Assembly: GCA_048885865.1 (NCBI GenBank)
Contig: JBHLLF010000015.1
Span: 1 to 64,000, forward strand
Source of the DNA: Candidatus Hermodarchaeota archaeon
GTDB taxonomy: Archaea; Asgardarchaeota; Thorarchaeia; Thorarchaeales; Thorarchaeaceae
Reading direction: 5' to 3'
DNA length: 64,000 nt
A model generated the notes under the pieces. The model had not been told where the DNA came from and did no database searches. It worked only from the letters and a program-made list of their open reading frames with translations. A program made the position numbers and the translations under genes. Below are positions 53,809 to 63,998 of this stretch, one piece after another; the stretch's first letter is position 1; every line of letters begins with the position of its first letter.

Positions 53809-54099
53809 TCATCTCATTGCCAGAATCAATGTAAGTTGAACGGCAACCATGGAATCAGGTCCGTGTATCCTGATTATCTCTTTAGCTGCCTCAAGATTGG
53901 GACCATAGAGACACTTCCGCATGTCTTGTAGGTCCGGAACACGTCTGAGCAAGCGGAGCTTAGTGAGACGCTTGATTGCTGAACTAACGGTTCTGGAAGG
54001 TAGTTTAGTCTTACTCGTGATTTCCTTAGGACTCATAGGACCGCCTTGAGCCAGACTCCGCAAGACAACCAGCGCGCTACCAGGGAGCTGAAAAGCCAC
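53809..54099 (-). CDS. Small winged-helix DNA-binding protein
   Basis: SPKEI...LPSRTVSSAIKRL..LRRVPDLQDMRK; start overlaps the upstream stop. Confidence 0.78.
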   Translation of the reverse strand: MAFQLPGSALVVLRSLAQGGPMSPKEITSKTKLPSRTVSSAIKRLTKLRLLRRVPDLQDMRKCLYGPNLEAAKEIIRIHGPDSMVAVQLTLILAMR

Positions 54100-55577
54100 T
54101 ATCCAGACCTCCTTCGATACAACACAACAATGACTGCAATCACAACGACCAATCCAGAAGCAATCACCAATTGCATTGTGGTATCCTCACGAGAAACAGA
54201 TTCCAAGGCATCAGCTGCTGCAACCCATGCGTCTGCTATCTCTATAAGATGGTCACGAATGTCCTCAAGATCTTGCTCGTAGTATTCAATAGCACTCTCA
54301 AGGTCTTCAGTTTCGTAGTAGAGGTCTGCAATATTGGTGAGTGCTTGAGTCAGAATTGTACCATTCACAGTATAGTATGGATCAATCAAGCTCGCATTGT
54401 CACTCAGCATCGCCAAGTGTGAAACTGCTGGACTGGCGGATTCCAAAAAGGGCTCTAAATCCAAGCCTGCCAAGATGCCTGGCAATGTCTTGAGACTCTC
54501 ACGATAGGACAGATATTGCAGAGTAATGCCCATTTCCATCTGTAATCCTGTAATAATCAATGTGTAGTAGCGATCATCTTTGTCGGAGCTCACATCATCT
54601 AGATAGGCGATTATTGTTTCCTTTGTAAGGTCATAGCTGAGACCTCTAAAGGCATCTGCTCCGAAGTTGGCGTAGAAGACATTCTCTAGACCCTCGCCAT
54701 ATGATGAACGCACACCTCTCAGCCTCTCACAGATATATGAAACAAGACTAGATTCAAAATCATCTGGAGGACCACTACCGGCCTTAACTACCACAGACCC
54801 ATAGCCCATGTCTTTCATTGCATTTTGTAATGTGCTATAATTGACTGAGTATAACCATCGACCATCATCAGGAAATCCAAAGTTCTCACCGATAGCTCCA
54901 ACTCCCGGATCCATGATTGTGACCTCACTTGCAGTGTCATTGTATCCAATACAGAGAACTGTATGTCCTGAGCCTGTATCTGCTGATTGTATTCCCATGG
55001 TTCTCGCAAAATCATAGTCAGAAGGGGGAAGGTAATATGGATCGGTCCAAATAGCCAAGGGATGCCCATCATCAACAGTGGTTCGTATCAAGTCTAGAGT
55101 GTCAGTCCAGCCATCGATGTCAGTGTATTTCAATCCCCAAGCTGCCATTGCCGGACCATATACTATGCCAATTCCTATATCATCGTCCATGTAGATGTCG
55201 ATGTCTAAACCGTAAAGATTAGCTATTGTAGGCAAAGGTTCCATCTGTCGAAGCATAGCACCTGGTAGAAACACTGTCAAATCTTCATAGCGGATGTAAC
55301 CCGCTGAGAAGCCGATCCCGGAAGCTGCGAAGAGACTGTGAAGATCCAATGGTGCTCCTGCATGCTGTAGTGCCATTGAGAGTGCGGACCACTGACAAAA
55401 GCCATTGATCTCCTGCCATTGATACGGAACTCCCGATATGTGACCATACCCATCACTTGCAGGGGTATAGCCAGGGCTAGGGATAGCTAGCCCCGGCTCG
55501 GAGATAGAAGAAGGAAGCTGCATTACTGTTACGCAGATTGCTGCAACAATCATTATTGCGACACGAATCTTATTCAA
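54099..55577 (-). CDS. Membrane-anchored C39-like/BtrH-like papain-fold protein
   Basis: Signal peptide; VPYQWQEINGFC, GHTVLCIGY, IMDPG; C-terminal TM plus RRR. Confidence 0.8.
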   Translation of the reverse strand: MNKIRVAIMIVAAICVTVMQLPSSISEPGLAIPSPGYTPASDGYGHISGVPYQWQEINGFCQWSALSMALQHAGAPLDLHSLFAASGIGFSAGYIRYEDLTVFLPGAMLRQMEPLPTIANLYGLDIDIYMDDDIGIGIVYGPAMAAWGLKYTDIDGWTDTLDLIRTTVDDGHPLAIWTDPYYLPPSDYDFARTMGIQSADTGSGHTVLCIGYNDTASEVTIMDPGVGAIGENFGFPDDGRWLYSVNYSTLQNAMKDMGYGSVVVKAGSGPPDDFESSLVSYICERLRGVRSSYGEGLENVFYANFGADAFRGLSYDLTKETIIAYLDDVSSDKDDRYYTLIITGLQMEMGITLQYLSYRESLKTLPGILAGLDLEPFLESASPAVSHLAMLSDNASLIDPYYTVNGTILTQALTNIADLYYETEDLESAIEYYEQDLEDIRDHLIEIADAWVAAADALESVSREDTTMQLVIASGLVVVIAVIVVLYRRRSG

Positions 55578-55707: not shown

Positions 55708-56478
55708 TCACCTCCAAGCTAACAGCTTGCTCTTGTCGATTTGCCCTCCAACAATCTTGAGATATGCATCCTCAAGGTCCCTAGTTCCTGTGGAAGCCAC
55801 AATCTCCTCAGGTGAACCAACAGTCACCAAAAATCCATCGTTGATTATACCAACAATATCGCAGGCATCCTCCGCGAATGAGGTCTGGTGTGTGCAGATG
55901 AAGAACGTGGTGTCGGTTTCTTCAGCAAGCACATGGATGAGGTCCTTGACGAGGGCTCCCGCACTTGGATCTAGCCTGGATGTGGGTTCATCTAGGAAGA
56001 CAAGCCTTGGTTCGTGAAGAATAGTGGAGGCGACGAGGACCTTCTGTTTCATTCCACTTGAGTAGGTGTCAAGGAGATCATCCTGACGCCCTTCAAGCCC
56101 TAGCATGTTCAGCAGACTGTCAATTCGCCTCCGGAGAGACTTGCCCTCCAGGTTGTTCAATGCCCCTATGAACTCGAGGAACTCGATGGCAGAGAGCTTT
56201 GAATAGAGACCAGGGGTTTCGGGCAGGAGACCAGTCATAGACTTGATCTCTCCTGCCTTCTCGACGATGTCCATCCCTAGTACTTTTGCAGTGCCGCTCG
56301 TGGGTTTCATAAGTCCCGAGAGCATGCGTACCGTAGTTGTCTTTCCTGCACCGTTTGGCCCTAGGAAGCCGAATCGACCTCCCGAGGCGACTTCCAGGTC
56401 GAGGTTTCTGACAGCTTGGATTGGACCAAAGGTCTTGTTTAGTCCTAGGGTTTTGATGGATATGCCGTTGTTGCCCAT
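55708..56478 (-). CDS. ABC transporter ATP-binding subunit
   Basis: GPNGAGKTT, YSSGMKQK, FLDEPT. Confidence 0.95.
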   Translation of the reverse strand: MGNNGISIKTLGLNKTFGPIQAVRNLDLEVASGGRFGFLGPNGAGKTTTVRMLSGLMKPTSGTAKVLGMDIVEKAGEIKSMTGLLPETPGLYSKLSAIEFLEFIGALNNLEGKSLRRRIDSLLNMLGLEGRQDDLLDTYSSGMKQKVLVASTILHEPRLVFLDEPTSRLDPSAGALVKDLIHVLAEETDTTFFICTHQTSFAEDACDIVGIINDGFLVTVGSPEEIVASTGTRDLEDAYLKIVGGQIDKSKLLAWR

Positions 56479-56483
56479 CGAAT

Positions 56484-58175
56484 CTACACCTCCACCTTTC
56501 CTAGGCTCCTGGTACCAAGAACCAACATCAGACCGCCCACAAGCAGTAGCGCAGTAGGTCCAAGCAGTATCTCCACAATATAGAAACCATTGATACCAAA
56601 GATACTCTCCATGAATCCAAAGAGGCTGAAGCCGAGTCCTATGTCGAGGAAAATCGCTGCAAAGAGGGGTCCAATCAGCGTAAACTGCGTCAGCATCATC
56701 GATGTAATTAGCACCGTCTGATGTGCAGAAGACTTGGTGTCCTCATAGTTCGGGTTCTGAGCGGTTACACCCATAGCAACCATTACAGCACCACAGACCA
56801 CAACAAATGCAGTGATGAAGATCTGGATTGTCGTTAGGACAGGTAGACTGAATATAATAGCCATCGCCAGGCTTGGTGCCAGACTTAGGGGCACAGCCAT
56901 TAGGAAACCTGTCGCAATGCGCGCTCTCATGAAGCGTGAGGCTCCCTTTGGTGCACTGCGAATTATCCATAGTTGGTCTTTCGATTCTAGGAATCCTGTA
57001 CCAGCAAATGGAAACACCCCGACTATCCCAATCATGATGCTGACCATGGGCAATATCTCTGCGGCTTCAAACACCTCTCCCTCCATGATTGTCATCTGTT
57101 GGATTAGGATTGGCATGATTATTGACAATACGACTCCATAGAATATCTTAGAGAGATTCTGCGCCTTTCTACCAAAGTCCTTTAAGCTGACGGCAGTGAG
57201 TGCGCCAAAAGGACCCTTTGCTACACTTCGGACACCTCGAATGAAGATGTTCTCGCGGCCAACAGTAGTCACTGTTTCAGTCCGTGCTCCTGCGCTTATC
57301 GTGAAAATCCTGTCAGCTGCCACTATTGCTATGGGTACGAATGCCAAACCAAAGGCAGACATTAGCACTGCACTTGTCAGCATGTCTAGTTGGAGGATGG
57401 CACCGAATGCAAGAATCTGAGATCCAGTCAGACCGATTCCGTTGTATGTGATGGCGACCCAACTAACCAAGTCAGCAGGCCAAGTGAAGGGCATGACTAG
57501 GAATGCGTTCATTCCAAGGATATCTGACAGCTGTGGCATGAAGAACATCAGACCATACATAGGTATGATGACTATGAGTGCAATCACAAAAGAGAGTGCC
57601 TTTGCGATATCGTTGCCACGTGACGAGTCCCCAAGCCTTGCCTGAACTACTGCTGTAATGAAGTTCGCTAACCAAATGGTCGATATGACCATTAAAGCGA
57701 TTACAGTGTAGACCAATGCCTGACCCACGATTGAAACCTCAAAGGCAAGCATGAAGGGGGAAATCAGTAATGGGGCAAAGACCATTACAATCAATCCATA
57801 CAAGGGCATTTTGCCGACAAATGTCCCGGTCAGAATGTCCCTTGTCCTAACATTGTTAGACAGAAAGATCTCCCATTGTCCAATCTTGATCTCTTGCAGA
57901 GAGTATGAGAGGGGGTACAGTAGTAGGAGTGCCCATAGGAAGAGCATCACTGTCCGCATGAGTCCAGGAAACATCACCATCAATAGTGTACGAATAGTTT
58001 CCAGCGGAATGATTAACTGGATGAATCCATTCACAAGCATCGGAGCCAAGTACACAGCCCATATTGCCGCCAGTGCAAACATCAGACCGACTACCGCTTT
58101 TCTGTGCTTCCGCATGCCTGCTGTCAGTACGAAGAACTCAGCCTTTGCGATATGATACCACTTGCGTGTCATCAC
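56484..58175 (-). CDS. ABC-2-type exporter permease (large, internally duplicated)
   Basis: About 12-14 TM helices, lies between two ATPases. Confidence 0.82.
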   Translation of the reverse strand: MMTRKWYHIAKAEFFVLTAGMRKHRKAVVGLMFALAAIWAVYLAPMLVNGFIQLIIPLETIRTLLMVMFPGLMRTVMLFLWALLLLYPLSYSLQEIKIGQWEIFLSNNVRTRDILTGTFVGKMPLYGLIVMVFAPLLISPFMLAFEVSIVGQALVYTVIALMVISTIWLANFITAVVQARLGDSSRGNDIAKALSFVIALIVIIPMYGLMFFMPQLSDILGMNAFLVMPFTWPADLVSWVAITYNGIGLTGSQILAFGAILQLDMLTSAVLMSAFGLAFVPIAIVAADRIFTISAGARTETVTTVGRENIFIRGVRSVAKGPFGALTAVSLKDFGRKAQNLSKIFYGVVLSIIMPILIQQMTIMEGEVFEAAEILPMVSIMIGIVGVFPFAGTGFLESKDQLWIIRSAPKGASRFMRARIATGFLMAVPLSLAPSLAMAIIFSLPVLTTIQIFITAFVVVCGAVMVAMGVTAQNPNYEDTKSSAHQTVLITSMMLTQFTLIGPLFAAIFLDIGLGFSLFGFMESIFGINGFYIVEILLGPTALLLVGGLMLVLGTRSLGKVEV

Positions 58176-58176
58176 T

Positions 58177-58956
58177 TCACCTCCAGGCTAGGAGCGCATC
58201 GCGGTCGATCTTGCCGCCGACTATGTCTAGGTACGCGGCTTCCAGATTCCGCGCATGTGACGCCTCAATGATGTCTTGAGGTGCACCCTGTGTGACAATC
58301 GCACCCTCGTTGAGGATCGCAATGACATCACAGACGTCTTCCGCAAAGCTCGTCATGTGAGTGCAGATGAAGAACGTTGTATCTGTTTCCTCAGAGAGGA
58401 CTAAGATCATGTCCTTGACTATGGCACTTGCACTGGGATCAAGCCGTGAAGTTGGTTCGTCAAGAAAGACGACCTTGGGCTCGTGTAGAAGTGTCGAGGC
58501 GACAAGGACCTTCTGCTTCATGCCTGATGAGTAAGACTCCAGCAAGTCGTCCTGTCTGCCCTCAAGTCCCAGTATGCCAAGTAGGCTGTCAATACGTCTG
58601 TGCACACCATCACCATTCCTACCATTGAGTGCTCCAATAAACTCTAGGAACTCAACAGCAGACAGCTTTGAGTAAAGACCGGGGGTCTCTGGGAGTAGGC
58701 CTGTTATTGCCTTGATAGCGTCGCGATCTTTGCTAACATCCATGCCGCATACTTCGGCATATCCGCTAGTCTGTTTTAATAGACCTGAAAGTATACGGAC
58801 TGTGGTTGTCTTCCCAGCTCCGTTAGGACCAAGGAAGCCAAACCTGTTGCCCGACATCACCTGCAGGTCTAGGTCACGTACGGCTCGAACAGAGTCGAAA
58901 GACTTGTTCAGCCGCTCGGTTCGAATTGTTATTCCGTTTCTAGCCAACTTGCTCAC
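58177..58956 (-). CDS. ABC transporter ATP-binding subunit (paralog)
   Basis: GPNGAGKTT, YSSGMKQK, FLDEPT; same LLAWR C-terminus. Confidence 0.95.
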   Translation of the reverse strand: MSKLARNGITIRTERLNKSFDSVRAVRDLDLQVMSGNRFGFLGPNGAGKTTTVRILSGLLKQTSGYAEVCGMDVSKDRDAIKAITGLLPETPGLYSKLSAVEFLEFIGALNGRNGDGVHRRIDSLLGILGLEGRQDDLLESYSSGMKQKVLVASTLLHEPKVVFLDEPTSRLDPSASAIVKDMILVLSEETDTTFFICTHMTSFAEDVCDVIAILNEGAIVTQGAPQDIIEASHARNLEAAYLDIVGGKIDRDALLAWR

Positions 58957-58966
58957 CGAAATTGTC

Positions 58967-59073
58967 TTGCAGTAAATGTTTACCGCAATCTATGTAAACA
59001 ATCACCACATTTAAATATAAACTTTCCCAAGTACGTAGTGAAGAATTACCCGAAAGCTTTATAGCTGGGTAAT
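58967..59073. promoter_or_regulatory. Divergent promoter region with two inverted repeats
   Basis: TTGCAGTAAA-TG-TTTACCGCAA (58967-58988); ATTACCC-N15-GGGTAAT (59045-59073) bracketing GAAAG-C-TTTATA. Confidence 0.55.
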
Positions 59074-59097: not shown

Positions 59098-59670
59098 ATG
59101 CTACTCTCAGTTCACGAAGCAACGGTCTGGTGGGAATTCCAGCAGGGAAAGACCACTGGTGAAATTGCGAGTGACTATGAGGGCCACGTAGTAGCTCCTC
59201 CATATGTCCATGCCCTTTTCGAGCAGTCTGACAAGAGATCTGAGAGAGAAGGCATTGAGGATGTACAACTTAAGGATACACAGTATGTTTCTAGAGTTCT
59301 TAACAGAGCTCGTTCCAAGATTGAAAAAGCTCTCAGAGACCAGGCGAAAAGTCATCGGCTTGATATTGAAACTGTTCAAGACTACAAGGGGCTACTAAGA
59401 GGATTCGATTACCAGGCAAACACAGAGGTGTATATCATCTATACGATGAAGCTTGGCGTTGTGGTCTGGTATAAGCACGACTCCTATGCTGGCAAGCTCT
59501 GTCCAGATTGTCCAAAGAAGGAAGAATGCCGTGAAACCCTTGATGCCATTATGACTGAATACAACATTACGCTCCGACCAGACGAGGAACAGCTCTACAT
59601 GACTGAACAATCAATTGCCATCTTCAATAAACTCGCTGCCAAAGAAGTACCGAGGTATAAGAGAGGATAA
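59098..59670 (+). CDS. Putative transcription regulator (sigma4/LuxR-like HTH plus CxxC-x5-C domain)
   Basis: LS..E..VW....QGKTTGEIA ... QYVSRVLNRARSKI; CPDCPKKEEC. Confidence 0.65.
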   Translation: MLLSVHEATVWWEFQQGKTTGEIASDYEGHVVAPPYVHALFEQSDKRSEREGIEDVQLKDTQYVSRVLNRARSKIEKALRDQAKSHRLDIETVQDYKGLLRGFDYQANTEVYIIYTMKLGVVVWYKHDSYAGKLCPDCPKKEECRETLDAIMTEYNITLRPDEEQLYMTEQSIAIFNKLAAKEVPRYKRG

Positions 59671-59686
59671 TGGAGAGTAGTGAAAG

Positions 59687-60439
59687 ATGGGTCGGGATTA
59701 TGAAGGGAAATTAATCAGGCCACCAATGGAAACAGTGGCTTATGGGAAAGTGTTCAAGCCCGCAACTGCATTGAGGAACAAGTACTGGTTCATTACGATA
59801 GTGACCTTAGTGACGATGTATGCAATAACCGCAGGCACGTTTCTTGGACTCTTCTACTTGTTATTCATGTTCGACAGCGACCTCTTTCAGTTCTCAGCTT
59901 GGCTCGACGCGGTGTGGACGCCGATCAACTTCTGGTTCTGGACTATCTCCCTCATCATAGTTGTCCCGGTGTTCGTACTGATTCCAATCTATCTGAATCG
60001 GTTTGAATATTCGGTGAGAGGCGAGTCAGGGAAGTCACTGCCTGAGATATACGTCAAGAAAGGACTCATCGATGTCACGGAGAAACATGTGCCGCTTAGA
60101 ACCATCACAAATATAGCGAGCAAGACTGGTCCCTTCGACCGGCTGTTTGGTATAGGCAATGTTGAGATTCATACTGCCGGATATTCTGGCGGGCCGTATG
60201 AAGGAGGAAAGCCGGAAGAGAAGATAGAGGGCATAGTGTTCTATCAGGAGCTGCGGGACTTCATTCTGAGTGAGATGAGGAGCCTAAAAGGCACTTATGC
60301 AACGACAACCGAGGTGCTTACAGAGCAGGACAGTACAATTCGAGTGGGTTCGGTTGAGGAAGCAACACTAGCCACACTGCAAGACCTTCGCCATATACTA
60401 CGTCGAATAGAAGACAAACTTGACAGGAGTGGAGTATGA
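59687..60439 (+). CDS. bPH_2 (YdbS/DUF304-like) membrane protein, copy 1
   Basis: 2 TM, then IYVKKGLI..TEKHVP.RTITNI....GPFDRLFGIG.VEI.TAG. Confidence 0.87.
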   Translation: MGRDYEGKLIRPPMETVAYGKVFKPATALRNKYWFITIVTLVTMYAITAGTFLGLFYLLFMFDSDLFQFSAWLDAVWTPINFWFWTISLIIVVPVFVLIPIYLNRFEYSVRGESGKSLPEIYVKKGLIDVTEKHVPLRTITNIASKTGPFDRLFGIGNVEIHTAGYSGGPYEGGKPEEKIEGIVFYQELRDFILSEMRSLKGTYATTTEVLTEQDSTIRVGSVEEATLATLQDLRHILRRIEDKLDRSGV

Positions 60440-60440
60440 C

Positions 60441-61208
60441 ATGAGCGGTTATTATGACGAGAGAGTGATCAAGCCTCCTATGGAGAGGATAGCCAGTGGG
60501 AAGATCTTCAAGCCAGCCAGGTCCTTAATCTTCAAGGGTTGGTTACAAGCTATCATGTTCTTTGCATTCTGGTGGATTGTCGGAATGACAGCTTGGACTG
60601 GCCTGTCATTCATAATCTTGGTATTCGATAGAGGGCTGACCCCGCTTCAACATGCTCAGTATATGGGAACGTGGTGGTGGATTGTAAACTTATGGTTCTG
60701 GGGAGTAGTTTGCATCATTCTAGGTATCGCTTTCGCGGTTTGGGCTGCATATGTTCTGAAAATCGAGTATTCGATTTTGGCTGAGTCAGGAAGAGCAATG
60801 CCAGAGATCTATGTGAAGAAAGGCATTCTCACAGTGACTGAGAAGCATGTGCCCTTCAGAACAATAACTTCCATCTTCTCGAAGAAAGGTGTGTTCGACA
60901 GGTTGTTTGGGATTGGGAGTGTTGAGATTCAGACTGCCGGGATGACAGGAGGCCCATCCCCTGGCGGGTTCCAACCAAGGCCAGAGGAGAAACTCGAGGG
61001 GCTGCCATACTTCAATGAACTCCGCGACTTCATTCTAAGAGAGCTTCGGAGATTCACAGGTCAATATGTCACAGGAACTGAAGTCGTTGTTCCTGAACAA
61101 GACAGGGCATTTGCAGACCTTGGACAAGGAGAAATACTGCGAACACTTCAGGACGTGCGGGACATTCTCAGGAGGATGGATGAAAAGCTTGACAGGAGGG
61201 ATATATGA
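60441..61208 (+). CDS. bPH_2 membrane protein, copy 2
   Basis: Same architecture; ATG 2 nt after the copy 1 stop. Confidence 0.87.
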   Translation: MSGYYDERVIKPPMERIASGKIFKPARSLIFKGWLQAIMFFAFWWIVGMTAWTGLSFIILVFDRGLTPLQHAQYMGTWWWIVNLWFWGVVCIILGIAFAVWAAYVLKIEYSILAESGRAMPEIYVKKGILTVTEKHVPFRTITSIFSKKGVFDRLFGIGSVEIQTAGMTGGPSPGGFQPRPEEKLEGLPYFNELRDFILRELRRFTGQYVTGTEVVVPEQDRAFADLGQGEILRTLQDVRDILRRMDEKLDRRDI

Positions 61209-61209
61209 G

Positions 61210-61971
61210 ATGAGTGATAGCAAAGTGATCAAACCTCCTTTGGAGGAAATCAAGAGCGGAAAGGTGTTCAAGCCCGCCACGGCATTCGTATACAAGGGCT
61301 GGTTTGGGCTGATTCTAGGAGCCATAGGACTCTGGATCTTTGCAATGCTAGTATGGCTCGGAACAGCGTATCTGGTCATTGTTTTCGATAGTGGAGCCAC
61401 ATTCTCAAGCTTCATTGTCTACCTCAACATCTGGTGGTGGCCAGTCAACTTCTGGTGGTGGGTAGTCAACGCGTTCTGGCTCATCCCTGCAATTCTCGTA
61501 TGGCCCTTCTATGTAAACAGGTTCGAGTACTCAGTGATAGCCCATTCAGGTGAAACAATGCCAGAGATCTATGTCCGCAAGGGAATCATCACGGTCACCG
61601 AGAAACACGTACCATTTCGTACTATAACAAACATATCAAGTAAGGCGGGTCCGATTGATAGACTCTTCAAAATTGGGAGTGTTGAGATTCAGACTGCAGG
61701 TTTCTCGGGAGGGGCTCAGGCTGGGGCGAAACCCGAAGAGAAGCTAGAAGGACTTCATATCTTTGAATCTGTGAGAGACTTTGTGCTAAGAGAGCTTCGG
61801 AGATTCACAGGCCAGTATGTCACCACGACCGAGGTAGTCGCTCCTACTGACAAGCCAGTGCAAAGAATGGATGACACGCTCCAAGACGAAATACTAATCA
61901 CACTACGGCAGATTAGAGATAAGATGGGCCCACTAGATGAAATCTTGGACCTTCTTAAGAAAAGAGCATAG
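61210..61971 (+). CDS. bPH_2 membrane protein, copy 3
   Basis: Same architecture; ATG at 61210 after GGAGG. Confidence 0.87.
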   Translation: MSDSKVIKPPLEEIKSGKVFKPATAFVYKGWFGLILGAIGLWIFAMLVWLGTAYLVIVFDSGATFSSFIVYLNIWWWPVNFWWWVVNAFWLIPAILVWPFYVNRFEYSVIAHSGETMPEIYVRKGIITVTEKHVPFRTITNISSKAGPIDRLFKIGSVEIQTAGFSGGAQAGAKPEEKLEGLHIFESVRDFVLRELRRFTGQYVTTTEVVAPTDKPVQRMDDTLQDEILITLRQIRDKMGPLDEILDLLKKRA

Positions 61972-61983
61972 GCGAGTCAAGGA

Positions 61984-62706
61984 ATGAGCAGTGACGGAAA
62001 AGTAATCAAACCTCCAATTGAGGAAGTAAAGAGCGGAAAGGTGTTCAAGCCATCAAAGGCCTTCCGCAACAAGAACTGGGTTTTGATGATATCTATAGCA
62101 TTGGGAATCTGGGTGACCTTTATCTCCATCATGCTTGGAATTGGGTATCTCGCGTTTGGTCTAATTGGACAGTCAGGCTTTCAGGGCTGGATCGATGTTT
62201 TCTGGAATGTGATCAATCCTTGGTACTGGCTGCTGACTGCTGTCTGGTTCATCCCTGCCTTTATCCTCTACCCAATCTACATCAACGCATTCGAATATTC
62301 AGTCATTGCTGAGTCAGGTGAAACGATGCCTGAGATATACGTGAAGAAAGGTCTCATCAACATCACACGCAAGCACGTTCCCCTGAGAACGATTACTAAC
62401 ATATCAACCCGGGCAGGTCCATTTGACCGCATCTTTGGAATTGGCACTGTTGAGGTGGAAACAGCTGGAGCCTCAGGACCACAAGTTGGGGGATCGGCGG
62501 AGGAGCGTCTGGAAGGGTTGGTCTTCTATGAAGAGCTCCGTGACTTCATCCTACGCGAGTTGCGCAGATTTAAGGATCCGTACGTTACTGGGACAGAGGT
62601 AGTGATTCCAGAGGACGAGAAGATTATCAGAGTGGGCAGTTCAATAGAAGAAGAGGTCCTCAAGGTGCTTGAGGATATCCGCGACCTACTAGGAGATCGC
62701 AGATAG
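61984..62706 (+). CDS. bPH_2 membrane protein, copy 4
   Basis: Same architecture. Confidence 0.87.
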   Translation: MSSDGKVIKPPIEEVKSGKVFKPSKAFRNKNWVLMISIALGIWVTFISIMLGIGYLAFGLIGQSGFQGWIDVFWNVINPWYWLLTAVWFIPAFILYPIYINAFEYSVIAESGETMPEIYVKKGLINITRKHVPLRTITNISTRAGPFDRIFGIGTVEVETAGASGPQVGGSAEERLEGLVFYEELRDFILRELRRFKDPYVTGTEVVIPEDEKIIRVGSSIEEEVLKVLEDIRDLLGDRR

Positions 62707-62708
62707 GA

Positions 62709-63473
62709 GTGAGTGTCATGAGGGAGGGATCTGCTCGAGTCATCAAGCCCCCCAGCGATGAGTTCGAGAGTGGCAGAATATTTAGACCTCTCCCTTCCCT
62801 GCGTCACAAGAAATGGTTGAAATTCATTCTGGCGGCGTTTGCATTCTATGGAGTATTTCTTTTCGCATTCTTTGGACCACCCATTGTCACGGTATTCATA
62901 ATCGAATTCATACCCTTGAACCTTTATCTTCCCATGGACAGTTGGATTGTTGGAAGCCAGATCTATTGGCTAATTACTCCGTTTTGGCTCATTCCGGCAC
63001 TAGTCTGGGTTCATCTCTATGTAAGAAGCATCGAGTATTCTGTTGTAGGTTGGCAGGGAGAAACAATGCCAGAGATCTACCAGAAGAAGGGCATCATCAC
63101 GATAACAAAGAAGCATGTGCCATTCAAGAACATTACCCACGTGAAGAACAGAGTTGGGATATTTGATAGACTGTATGGGATTGGCTGTGTGAAGGTAGAA
63201 ACGGCTGGTGAGAAAGGGGGAATGCAAGCCACAGGGGTGCTGACACTCATTATTTCGCGACTGTTTTCTTCCAGTTCCGAAGAAAACATAGAGGGCATTC
63301 GATTCCACGAGGAATTGAAGAGATTCATCCTGAAAGAGATGCGCGGATTTGGGAAAGCTCCTCTTCATGTTTCCAGGGAGAGAAGAGTCACCTCCAAGGG
63401 TCTTTTCACAGAACGTACTCTGCGAGCCTTTCAGGATGTCAGAGATGCGCTAAGAACTGAAGCACAAAGGTGA
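62709..63473 (+). CDS. bPH_2 membrane protein, copy 5 (most divergent; ATG at 62718 possible)
   Basis: Same core with a hydrophobic insertion (ATGVLTLIISRLF) after the TAG motif. Confidence 0.85.
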   Translation: MSVMREGSARVIKPPSDEFESGRIFRPLPSLRHKKWLKFILAAFAFYGVFLFAFFGPPIVTVFIIEFIPLNLYLPMDSWIVGSQIYWLITPFWLIPALVWVHLYVRSIEYSVVGWQGETMPEIYQKKGIITITKKHVPFKNITHVKNRVGIFDRLYGIGCVKVETAGEKGGMQATGVLTLIISRLFSSSSEENIEGIRFHEELKRFILKEMRGFGKAPLHVSRERRVTSKGLFTERTLRAFQDVRDALRTEAQR

Positions 63474-63569
63474 ATGATAATGCGATCTATGAAGTATGTA
63501 TTGGTGCTATTATTGGGATTGTTGATGTTTTTCTTCTTCCTGGCTCTCTACCTCTCTGGACTTCTCTAA
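63474..63569 (+). CDS. Putative 31-aa single-TM peptide
   Basis: MIMRSMKYVLVLLLGLLMFFFFLALYLSGLL; ATG abuts the copy 5 stop; too short for the ORF track. Confidence 0.5.
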   Translation: MIMRSMKYVLVLLLGLLMFFFFLALYLSGLL

Positions 63570-63572
63570 CAT

Positions 63573-63998
63573 TCAGTAGGTGAAGCCGAGCGGAACCGGG
63601 GGAGTAGTTATTAGTGCTTCTCCGTCGTCCCAGACAACATGAACTCTAGCATACAGATCGATGCCCTCTTCTAGGTCAGGCGAGTAGATTGTTTCACGGT
63701 CGTTAGTGAACTGAATGAGTTGTGAGCTATTTGAGGACACAGTGAACTCATCGAAGCAACAGGTAAGGCCTGGCTGAATCTTGAATGTGTGTAGGATGTT
63801 TCTACTGCCGCCAAAATAGACTGTGACTGCGCGGACATTCAGCCCAAACACAGTTGTATTGGCGCGATTAGTCGCATTTAGACGGATTATTAGATAGAAT
63901 GGAGGCCCCTCAGGAGGGATTTCAGGCATGAAGTCTTGCCAAAAGTATGCGGTGGCAGTTAGCTCGAAATCATCCACAATTACAGGTTCGACAGACTG
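63573..63998 (-). CDS. Hypothetical beta-rich protein (5'-truncated by window edge)
   Basis: Frame open to the edge; FWQDFMP motif and sequons suggest an extracellular domain. Confidence 0.6.
   Translation of the reverse strand, partial: QSVEPVIVDDFELTATAYFWQDFMPEIPPEGPPFYLIIRLNATNRANTTVFGLNVRAVTVYFGGSRNILHTFKIQPGLTCCFDEFTVSSNSSQLIQFTNDRETIYSPDLEEGIDLYARVHVVWDDGEALITTPPVPLGFTY

Follow-up and report, generated by a model that had tools for sequence, protein, structure and literature searches.

A conserved archaeal cassette of a Tfx/EnfR-like regulator and YdbS-type membrane PH proteins, a candidate envelope module

The closest described systems for the locus reported here are YdbS and YdbT of Bacillus subtilis and their homologs in Bacillota and Actinomycetota (COG3402 and COG3428), in which the repeated unit consists of two transmembrane (TM) helices and a bPH_2 domain. 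YdbS/YdbT comprise 1 + 3 such modules, are encoded in a co-directional operon and are under sigma-W control. The bacterial homologs have been tied to envelope and antimicrobial-peptide phenotypes (PMC8657885; bioRxiv 10.64898/2026.07.05.736553). DdE and DdF are homologs of YdbS/YdbT; the leaderless enterocin DD14 requires both ddE and ddF for its export, and the two genes adjoin ATP-binding cassette (ABC) genes (PMC8657885). Loss-of-function mutations in ydbT/ydbS of S. aureus are selected by pleurocidin and pexiganan (bioRxiv 10.64898/2026.07.05.736553). The leaderless-bacteriocin loci for enterocin DD14 (ddE/ddF with ddHIJ), lacticin Q (lnqC/lnqD) and aureocin A53 (orf7/orf8) share a layout in which bPH_2 proteins stand beside an ABC exporter and small peptide genes are found within the unit (PMC8657885). 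The archaeal locus was analyzed within a window of 64,000 nucleotides (positions 1 to 64,000 of contig JBHLLF010000015.1, assembly GCA_048885865.1, Candidatus Hermodarchaeota archaeon). Here, five single-module bPH_2 genes (P1 to P5), likewise co-directional, follow the gene for a regulator-like protein, denoted REG, which has its own candidate operator in place of sigma-W control. Most likely, the locus encodes a hetero-oligomeric membrane complex under regulation, similar in kind to YdbS/YdbT, whose assembly and function are proposals.

By gene layout, REG with its Tfx/EnfR-like helix-turn-helix (HTH), the five bPH_2 paralogs and a 31-residue TM peptide make up one tightly coupled operon on the plus strand (Table 1). 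The five reading frames contain zero internal stops. The intergenic gaps from P1 to P5 are 1, 1, 12 and 11 nt, and the ATG codons of P2 and P3 are each located 1 nt past the preceding stop. The last codons of P1 and P2 contain GGAG or GGAGG immediately ahead of the next ATG. As judged from sequence, the P1 to P5 genes are translationally coupled. An alternative start for P5 is the GTG at 62709. These lengths, gaps and GGAG motifs agree with the original prediction of five tandem bPH_2 paralogs of 240–255 aa separated by 1–12 nt, whose span had been given as 59098–63569. The paralogs themselves occupy 59687–63473; the start of the longer interval belongs to REG and its end to the open reading frame (ORF) of the micro-peptide. 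The five paralogs had been recognized; REG, its candidate operator, the micro-ORF and the ABC exporter on the other side had been overlooked.

Each of the five proteins is built from an N-terminal strand motif, two TM helices, a PH domain and a C-terminal helix. All five score above the gathering cut-off of PF03703 (22 bits), with 29–44 bits and E-values of 1e-6 to 3e-11. The identity of P1 to the other paralogs is 35–52%. P5 is 35–41% identical to the other four copies, and its loop carries a 12-residue insertion. Trp-rich hydrophobic segments are found in all five copies. Four of the five copies (P5 deviates) have the motif W...N.W.W where TM2 reaches its outer end; conservation of this motif is 90% or more in a family alignment of 75 sequences. 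Each protein is closed by an amphipathic L..[IL]R[DE]..L helix. The motifs quoted earlier for the array are all present, with the amendment that P5 has D in place of E in the N-terminal motif. The archaeal proteins have a conserved N-terminal IKPP..GK[VI]FKP motif as well as the C-terminal helix. No NCBIfam model is matched by the archaeal paralogs. A six-frame PF03703 search of the genome (a 3.58-Mb metagenome-assembled genome, MAG, 87% complete) returned P1 to P5 and one match on another contig. Near-identical homologs come from MAGs labelled Thorarchaeota, and the source organism is assigned to this Asgard group.

The micro-ORF peptide is very hydrophobic and has two basic residues. In seven related loci (L011–L014, L019, L021 and L022) the final bPH_2 gene is directly adjoined by a similar intact micro-ORF, and in locus L027 a similar one is located 99 nt downstream of the last bPH_2 gene.

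The linkage of REG to the bPH_2 genes was examined in loci reached in three ways: from PH proteins (20 loci), from REG in other genomes of the phylum (19 orthologous loci) and from REG in named GTDB genomes (80 loci). REG is followed by at least one bPH_2 gene (one to five) on the same strand in 119 of 119 loci (20/20, 19/19 and 80/80), with partial overlap between the three samples and without independence among related genomes. The cassette of REG and one or more bPH_2 genes is invariant in MAGs of Thorarchaeia, Bathyarchaeia and those labelled Hermod. The number of copies is five in the closest relatives and four, three or two in other genera of Thorarchaeia. A single copy is found in some Thorarchaeia, in MAGs labelled Hermod- and Promethearchaeota, and in approximately 35 Bathyarchaeia-labelled loci, three chromosome-level records among them. 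The single-copy proteins retain the N-terminal motif, a YVTGTEV motif and a C-terminal LDDEIL.TLREIRD.L helix. No description of this archaeal cassette was returned by a literature search.

Between Thorarchaeia and Bathyarchaeia (L081 and L094–L131), REG is approximately 60% identical and the single bPH_2 partner approximately 50% identical, values that are high for two phyla. This similarity suggests horizontal transfer of REG and bPH_2 between sediment archaea. One contig carrying the cassette (L090) bears the label Patescibacteria, probably through misbinning.

A distant, AT-rich Asgard family has a REG-like gene followed by two or three tandem bPH_2 genes. The REG-like protein of this family is 38% identical to REG over the C-terminal 111 residues and is without the HTH insertion described below, and its PH protein is 38% identical to P4. 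At L132:2115-6981 (Asgard family f22, genus g44), a single strand carries the REG-like gene, three tandem bPH_2 genes of approximately 225 codons and genes for an ABC ATPase and an ABC-2 permease. The cassette thus seems to have a second tandem array, in a remote lineage. Since ABC genes are present there as well, the ABC association would have arisen or persisted in two arrangements; in this family the ABC neighbors are known from the one locus whose ORFs were read.

REG matches no family in Pfam or NCBIfam. The AlphaFold2 model of REG has a mean predicted local distance difference test score (pLDDT) of 91. Residues 1–81 superpose on the HTH domains of sigma-70 region 4, LuxR and EnfR, which account for nearly all of the top 50 VIA-align matches. 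The superpositions have Z-scores of 3.3–4.8, low because the domain is small, and a root-mean-square deviation (rmsd) of 0.8–1.1 Å over approximately 51 residues. An insertion of approximately 30 residues in the HTH is left out of these alignments. A long helix spans residues 61–85 and is followed by a four-stranded alpha/beta domain. Residues H127, C135, C138 and C144 are invariant in 66 homologs. A Foldseek search with the REG model gave no match below an E-value of 0.3, and an ESM Atlas search with the C-terminal domain gave no usable match. In a set of 1.84 billion proteins, REG has only 95 representative clusters at E-values up to 0.001.

The closest known relative of REG is EnfR (TON_1525, PDB 8hno) of the archaeal Tfx family, a dimer that binds a pseudo-palindrome (PMC10570040). 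The common layout is a sigma-70 region 4-like HTH, a long helix and a C-terminal alpha+beta domain. The HTH of REG superposes on that of 8hno with an rmsd of 0.9 Å over 51 residues at 26% identity; the structural alignment covers the HTH part alone. REG differs from EnfR/Tfx in the HTH insertion, in the invariant His/Cys3 set and in the TFX_C domain (PF14601), which REG does not match by hmmscan at E-values up to 1 and which gave no hit to 59098–59670 in a six-frame search of the genome at the same threshold. A second REG-like protein of 160 aa (G000 contig C11, L039:4939-5421) has a contiguous HTH without the insertion and the H..C..C...C motif, and its gene precedes those for two large secreted or membrane-anchored proteins. 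These genomes contain several REG-like proteins, which make up a small family of regulators linked to the envelope.

The REG operon and an ABC operon diverge across a region of 141 bp that contains a perfect inverted repeat and an AT-rich TATA-like box, the latter a putative promoter element. The sequence GTTTAC-N8-11-GTAAAC occurs once in the genome, at this site. Its position is kept in relatives, and its spacer changes. Of 78 loci from Thorarchaeia, Hermod-labelled MAGs and Bathyarchaeia, 51 have an exact TTTAC-N8-11-GTAAA in the 240 nt upstream of REG, with examples in all three groups, against a background of 2 matches in the remaining 566 kb of those loci. In many Bathyarchaeia loci the AT-rich spacer of the palindrome is located approximately 45 nt ahead of the start codon, the expected place of a TATA box. 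The palindrome is probably bound by REG.

The divergent operon is present at most Thorarchaeia loci. It encodes two DrrA-like ABC ATPases, the presumed permease of an ABC exporter, a protein with a Peptidase_C39_2-like domain and a MarR-family protein (Table 1). The presumed permease adjoins the ATPase in relatives as well, at 48–90% identity. The C39-like protein has a hydrophobic N-terminal segment, a stretch resembling tetratricopeptide repeats (TPR) and a C-terminal TM segment; the TPR models all fall under the Pfam cut-off, the best with an E-value of 4.7e-4 (20.6 bits versus 25.7). C39-like homologs come after the ABC genes in several genera. No defence system was matched by PADLOC for REG, P1, P4, P5, the permease or the C39-like protein.

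The shared candidate operator also bears on a signaling mechanism in which the PH proteins would hold REG at the membrane, in the manner of an anti-sigma and sigma factor pair, and would free it under envelope stress so that the ABC exporter is turned on. The linkage of REG to bPH_2 in every locus is consistent with this mechanism, as are the sigma-4-like HTH with its conserved His/Cys3 site and the peptides that are commonly bound at the open beta edge of PH-fold domains (PMC2817789). Co-transcription with an autoregulator is common, though, and explains the linkage without contact; in addition, REG paralogs exist without bPH_2 genes, and five copies of the PH protein are left without a reason. 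We regard direct signaling between the two proteins as improbable.

The history of the five paralogs was reconstructed with a maximum-likelihood tree of 70 proteins from a quick IQ-TREE run. Five position-specific orthogroups are obtained with SH-aLRT (Shimodaira–Hasegawa-like approximate likelihood-ratio test) values of 95–99. P5 forms the deepest split, and its orthogroup spans at least three genera. The P4 orthogroup is shared with other genera, and P2 and P3 are sisters. The order of the orthogroups is conserved across genera. The tree and the gene order identify the five copies as old, ordered orthogroups, that is, as stable orthologs rather than a set with turnover.

Sequence identity was compared by region between paralogs and within orthogroups. 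The respective values are 21% and 68% for TM1, 13% and 60% for the loop, 34% and 72% for TM2, and 61% and 89% for the PH domain; the N-terminus is 50% identical between paralogs. The TM segments and loop are the most variable parts, and highly variable TM helices were part of the original prediction. The ratio of nonsynonymous to synonymous substitution rates (dN/dS), obtained by the Nei–Gojobori method against three close relatives, is 0.06–0.14 for the TM segments and loop together, 0.08–0.14 for the TM segments by themselves, at most 0.015 for the PH domain and 0.11–0.19 for the linker. All regions of the bPH_2 paralogs are under purifying selection. Because dN/dS is low in the TM segments and loop and identity within orthogroups is high, these segments are paralog-specific and conserved, not diversifying. 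The checks of regional dN/dS and copy number proposed with the array gave a TM/loop region that evolves faster than the PH domain, purifying selection throughout and one to five copies. An arms-race diversification of the TM segments was rejected at a dN/dS of at most 0.14, and the proposed diversified immunity or sensor repertoire is weakened by the same values and by the stability of the orthologs.

P2 and P3 are 56% identical in nucleotides and share two identical runs of 26 nt and one of 19 nt. A run of 26 nt was reached in 0 of 2000 shuffles of the codon columns, a shuffle that ignores the clustering of conserved residues. Short gene-conversion tracts between neighboring paralogs are possible. 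Unusually long identical runs are also present in P3–P4, P3–P5 and P2–P5. No pseudogenization was seen in relatives, another of the checks proposed earlier, and none of the bPH_2 matches in relatives contains a stop. In 2 of 80 loci one copy is split into two adjacent pieces in different frames (L065:5403-6126 and L067:6158-6873), by a frameshift or an assembly error.

The divergence between the paralogs can be explained in a second way. The five proteins could act separately as homo-oligomers, with the diverged TM hairpin and outer loop giving each its own ligand or partner, and would then form a stable, sub-functionalized repertoire. The TM segments and loop are the parts that differ most between paralogs, the single-copy genomes show that one protein is enough, and both the number and the composition of the copies differ between genera. 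The 1-nt gaps and internal ribosome-binding sites, by comparison, fit equimolar co-translation, and the conserved order and orthogroups, the lack of detected positive selection (dN/dS at most 0.14) and the W...N.W.W motif common to most copies also count against separate action. Separate action is unlikely, although it has the best prospects of the alternatives considered here. Ordered orthogroups and purifying selection are better matched by a putative hetero-oligomer with fixed subunits than by a repertoire in rapid evolution.

The fold of the bPH_2 proteins was addressed with an AlphaFold2 model of P4. The model has helices at residues 25–59 and 65–100 (pLDDT 78–90), strands at 104–179 and a helix at 182–196. 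A PH-like beta-sandwich with a C-terminal helix cap is seen in this model, at a domain pLDDT of mostly 52–67 with one block at 45. The top Foldseek matches are the bacterial PH domains 3hsa and 3dcx, with match probabilities of 0.98–0.99 and E-values of 0.02–0.05. The top 50 VIA-align matches are mostly PH, PTB, FERM-F3, GRAM and GLUE domains (Z-scores of 7.2–8.4 over 82–113 residues), with a few matches to TM helices. PDB sequence searches with both family profiles gave no matches. Most of the VIA-align alignments begin at residues 15–19, which correspond to the conserved GK[VI]F strand ahead of TM1. This start suggests that the N-terminal motif provides beta-1 and that the beta1–beta2 loop contains the TM hairpin as an insertion. 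DUF304 (now bPH_2) appears without beta-1 (Xu et al., PMC2817789).

The array had been proposed to bear on the origin of eukaryotic PH domains, and a structural comparison with eukaryotic PH and GRAM domains had been recommended. The affinity of the P4 model to the eukaryotic domains is no closer than that to bacterial PH domains. PF03703 is present in 210 of 301 sampled Asgard genomes and in the Bacillus, Corynebacterium, Synechococcus and Haloferax control genomes. A reading in terms of eukaryotic origin was rejected on the prokaryotic spread of bPH_2, the presence of the cassette in Bathyarchaeia and this structural comparison; the locus sheds no light on the origin of eukaryotic PH domains.

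Soluble PH domains of PF08000 form C5 and C12 rings via open beta edges (PMC2817789). The ring proteins (3dcx, 3hsa and 3b77) are soluble and belong to another Pfam family, and P1 to P5 belong to PF03703 and not to PF08000. The relation of PF08000 to DUF304 was merely inferred in the same study, where rings were shown for PF08000 only (PMC2817789). The C5 rings (PMC2817789), the five copies and the amphipathic helix at the end of each would accommodate a mechanosensitive or osmotic-release pentameric channel with an MscL-like terminal helix bundle. The MscL homolog of the genome (120 aa, G000 contig C7, L031:1483-1845, minus strand) has a similar amphipathic LEELREIRKLL helix at its N-terminus. 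This channel is very improbable: the likeness to MscL is limited to the short amphipathic motif, the number of copies is not fixed at five and the C5 rings come from a different family. The identity of the tails with MscL or SHOCT was rejected, as the five C-terminal tails (44–55 aa) match neither PF01741 nor PF09851 at E-values up to 10.

For the hetero-oligomeric assembly preferred here, the following mechanism is proposed. A REG dimer would bind TTTAC-N8-11-GTAAA and control both operons. Each bPH_2 protein would place its Trp-rich TM hairpin in the membrane and its PH-like domain on the cytoplasmic face, with the GK[VI]F strand serving as beta-1 and the hairpin as an insertion in the beta1–beta2 loop. 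The paralogs would assemble side by side to give a hetero-oligomer, and the protein of single-copy genomes would give a homo-oligomer. The micro-peptide is possibly a further subunit. If YdbS/YdbT and DdE/DdF are taken as models, this assembly, in concert with the ABC exporter, would help small amphipathic or hydrophobic peptides or lipids to cross or leave the membrane. Like those of the bacteriocin loci, the archaeal bPH_2 genes adjoin ABC exporter genes, but the archaeal ABC genes are divergent and are absent at the single-copy loci.

Several observations weigh against this interpretation. The ABC operon is missing from the single-copy loci, so the ABC link is not universal. The copy number varies from one to five, and the first copy differs in the same-genus genomes G016 and G003; because both copy number and composition vary, a fixed stoichiometry is unlikely. 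REG paralogs elsewhere in the genome precede other envelope genes without bPH_2, and REG may be merely a general-purpose regulator. The fused multi-module form of YdbT was not found among near relatives, which is weak evidence, and one relative of 512 aa has a single bPH_2 domain. No gene for a cationic amphipathic bacteriocin of 30–50 aa was found in the operon; the sole small conserved ORF encodes the 31-residue hydrophobic TM peptide, and no other gap in the operon is large enough. The function of bacterial YdbS/YdbT is itself unsettled. The mean pLDDT of the P4 monomer model is 65, with the low PH-domain values given above, and the split-PH arrangement, which depends on this modest model, is a lead and not a result. 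We know of no antagonism for the archaeal bPH_2 system. On balance, the description of the locus as an autoregulated archaeal envelope module centred on YdbS-type membrane PH proteins is given about an even chance of being correct.

Table 1. Positions of the features of the REG/bPH_2 locus and of its surroundings in the window.
Feature	Position	Strand	Evidence and remarks
REG, 190-aa cytosolic regulator-like protein	59098-59670	+	HTH structure matches; no family
P1, bPH_2 paralog, 250 aa	59687-60439	+	PF03703 E 1.7e-8; alignment; orthogroup P1
P2, bPH_2 paralog, 255 aa	60441-61208	+	PF03703 E 1.6e-8; orthogroup P2, sister to P3
P3, bPH_2 paralog, 253 aa	61210-61971	+	PF03703 E 5.8e-9; orthogroup P3
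P4, bPH_2 paralog, 240 aa	61984-62706	+	PF03703 E 3.1e-11; AlphaFold2 model
P5, most diverged bPH_2 paralog, 251 aa	62718-63473	+	PF03703 E 9.7e-7
31-aa single-TM micro-ORF, ATG directly after the P5 stop	63474-63569	+	sequence; conserved in relatives
Candidate REG operator, perfect inverted repeat TGTTTAC-N10-GTAAACA	58977-59000	.	sequence; conservation
AT-rich TATA-like box TTTAAATATAAA between the divergent operons	59010-59021	.	sequence; conserved in intergenic alignment
ABC ATPase 1 (DrrA-like), at the head of the divergent operon	58177-58956	-	PF00005 E 7e-24; TIGR01188 drrA E 2e-61, below cut-off
563-aa polytopic membrane protein, presumed ABC exporter permease	56484-58175	-	no Pfam/NCBIfam family
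ABC ATPase 2 (DrrA-like)	55708-56478	-	PF00005 E 2e-25; TIGR01188 E 5e-66, below cut-off
492-aa membrane protein, Peptidase_C39_2-like domain	54099-55577	-	PF13529 E 1.2e-10
96-aa MarR-family winged-helix protein, end of the divergent operon	53809-54099	-	PF12802 E 1.1e-9; candidate member of the unit
P2/P3 26-nt identical runs	60913-60938 / 61673-61698 and 61037-61062 / 61788-61813 (approximate)		sequence comparison
Convergent ORF, at least 134 aa, runs past the window end	63573-63998	-	no Pfam family; four close relatives also have it downstream of the array

A bolder version of the proposal is a long shot. REG and bPH_2 might constitute an undescribed membrane machine of Asgard archaea and Bathyarchaeia, in which a ring of split-PH domains, each with its TM hairpin in the beta1–beta2 loop, makes a pore for peptides or lipids. 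For this genus, the pore would consist of a hetero-pentameric ring and the micro-peptide, and the Tfx-like regulator would relay its state to the genome.

Membrane proteins with a bPH_2 domain are common, but how they work is not understood even for those of Bacillus and Staphylococcus, which affect the export of antimicrobial peptides and the sensitivity to them. The locus marks a conserved, unnamed family of regulators and a real micro-protein that gene callers may overlook. The archaeal version gives a clean two-gene core, consisting of a regulator and one PH protein, together with a defined candidate operator sequence. The natural series of one to five paralogs could reveal the route from a homo-oligomer to a hetero-oligomer.

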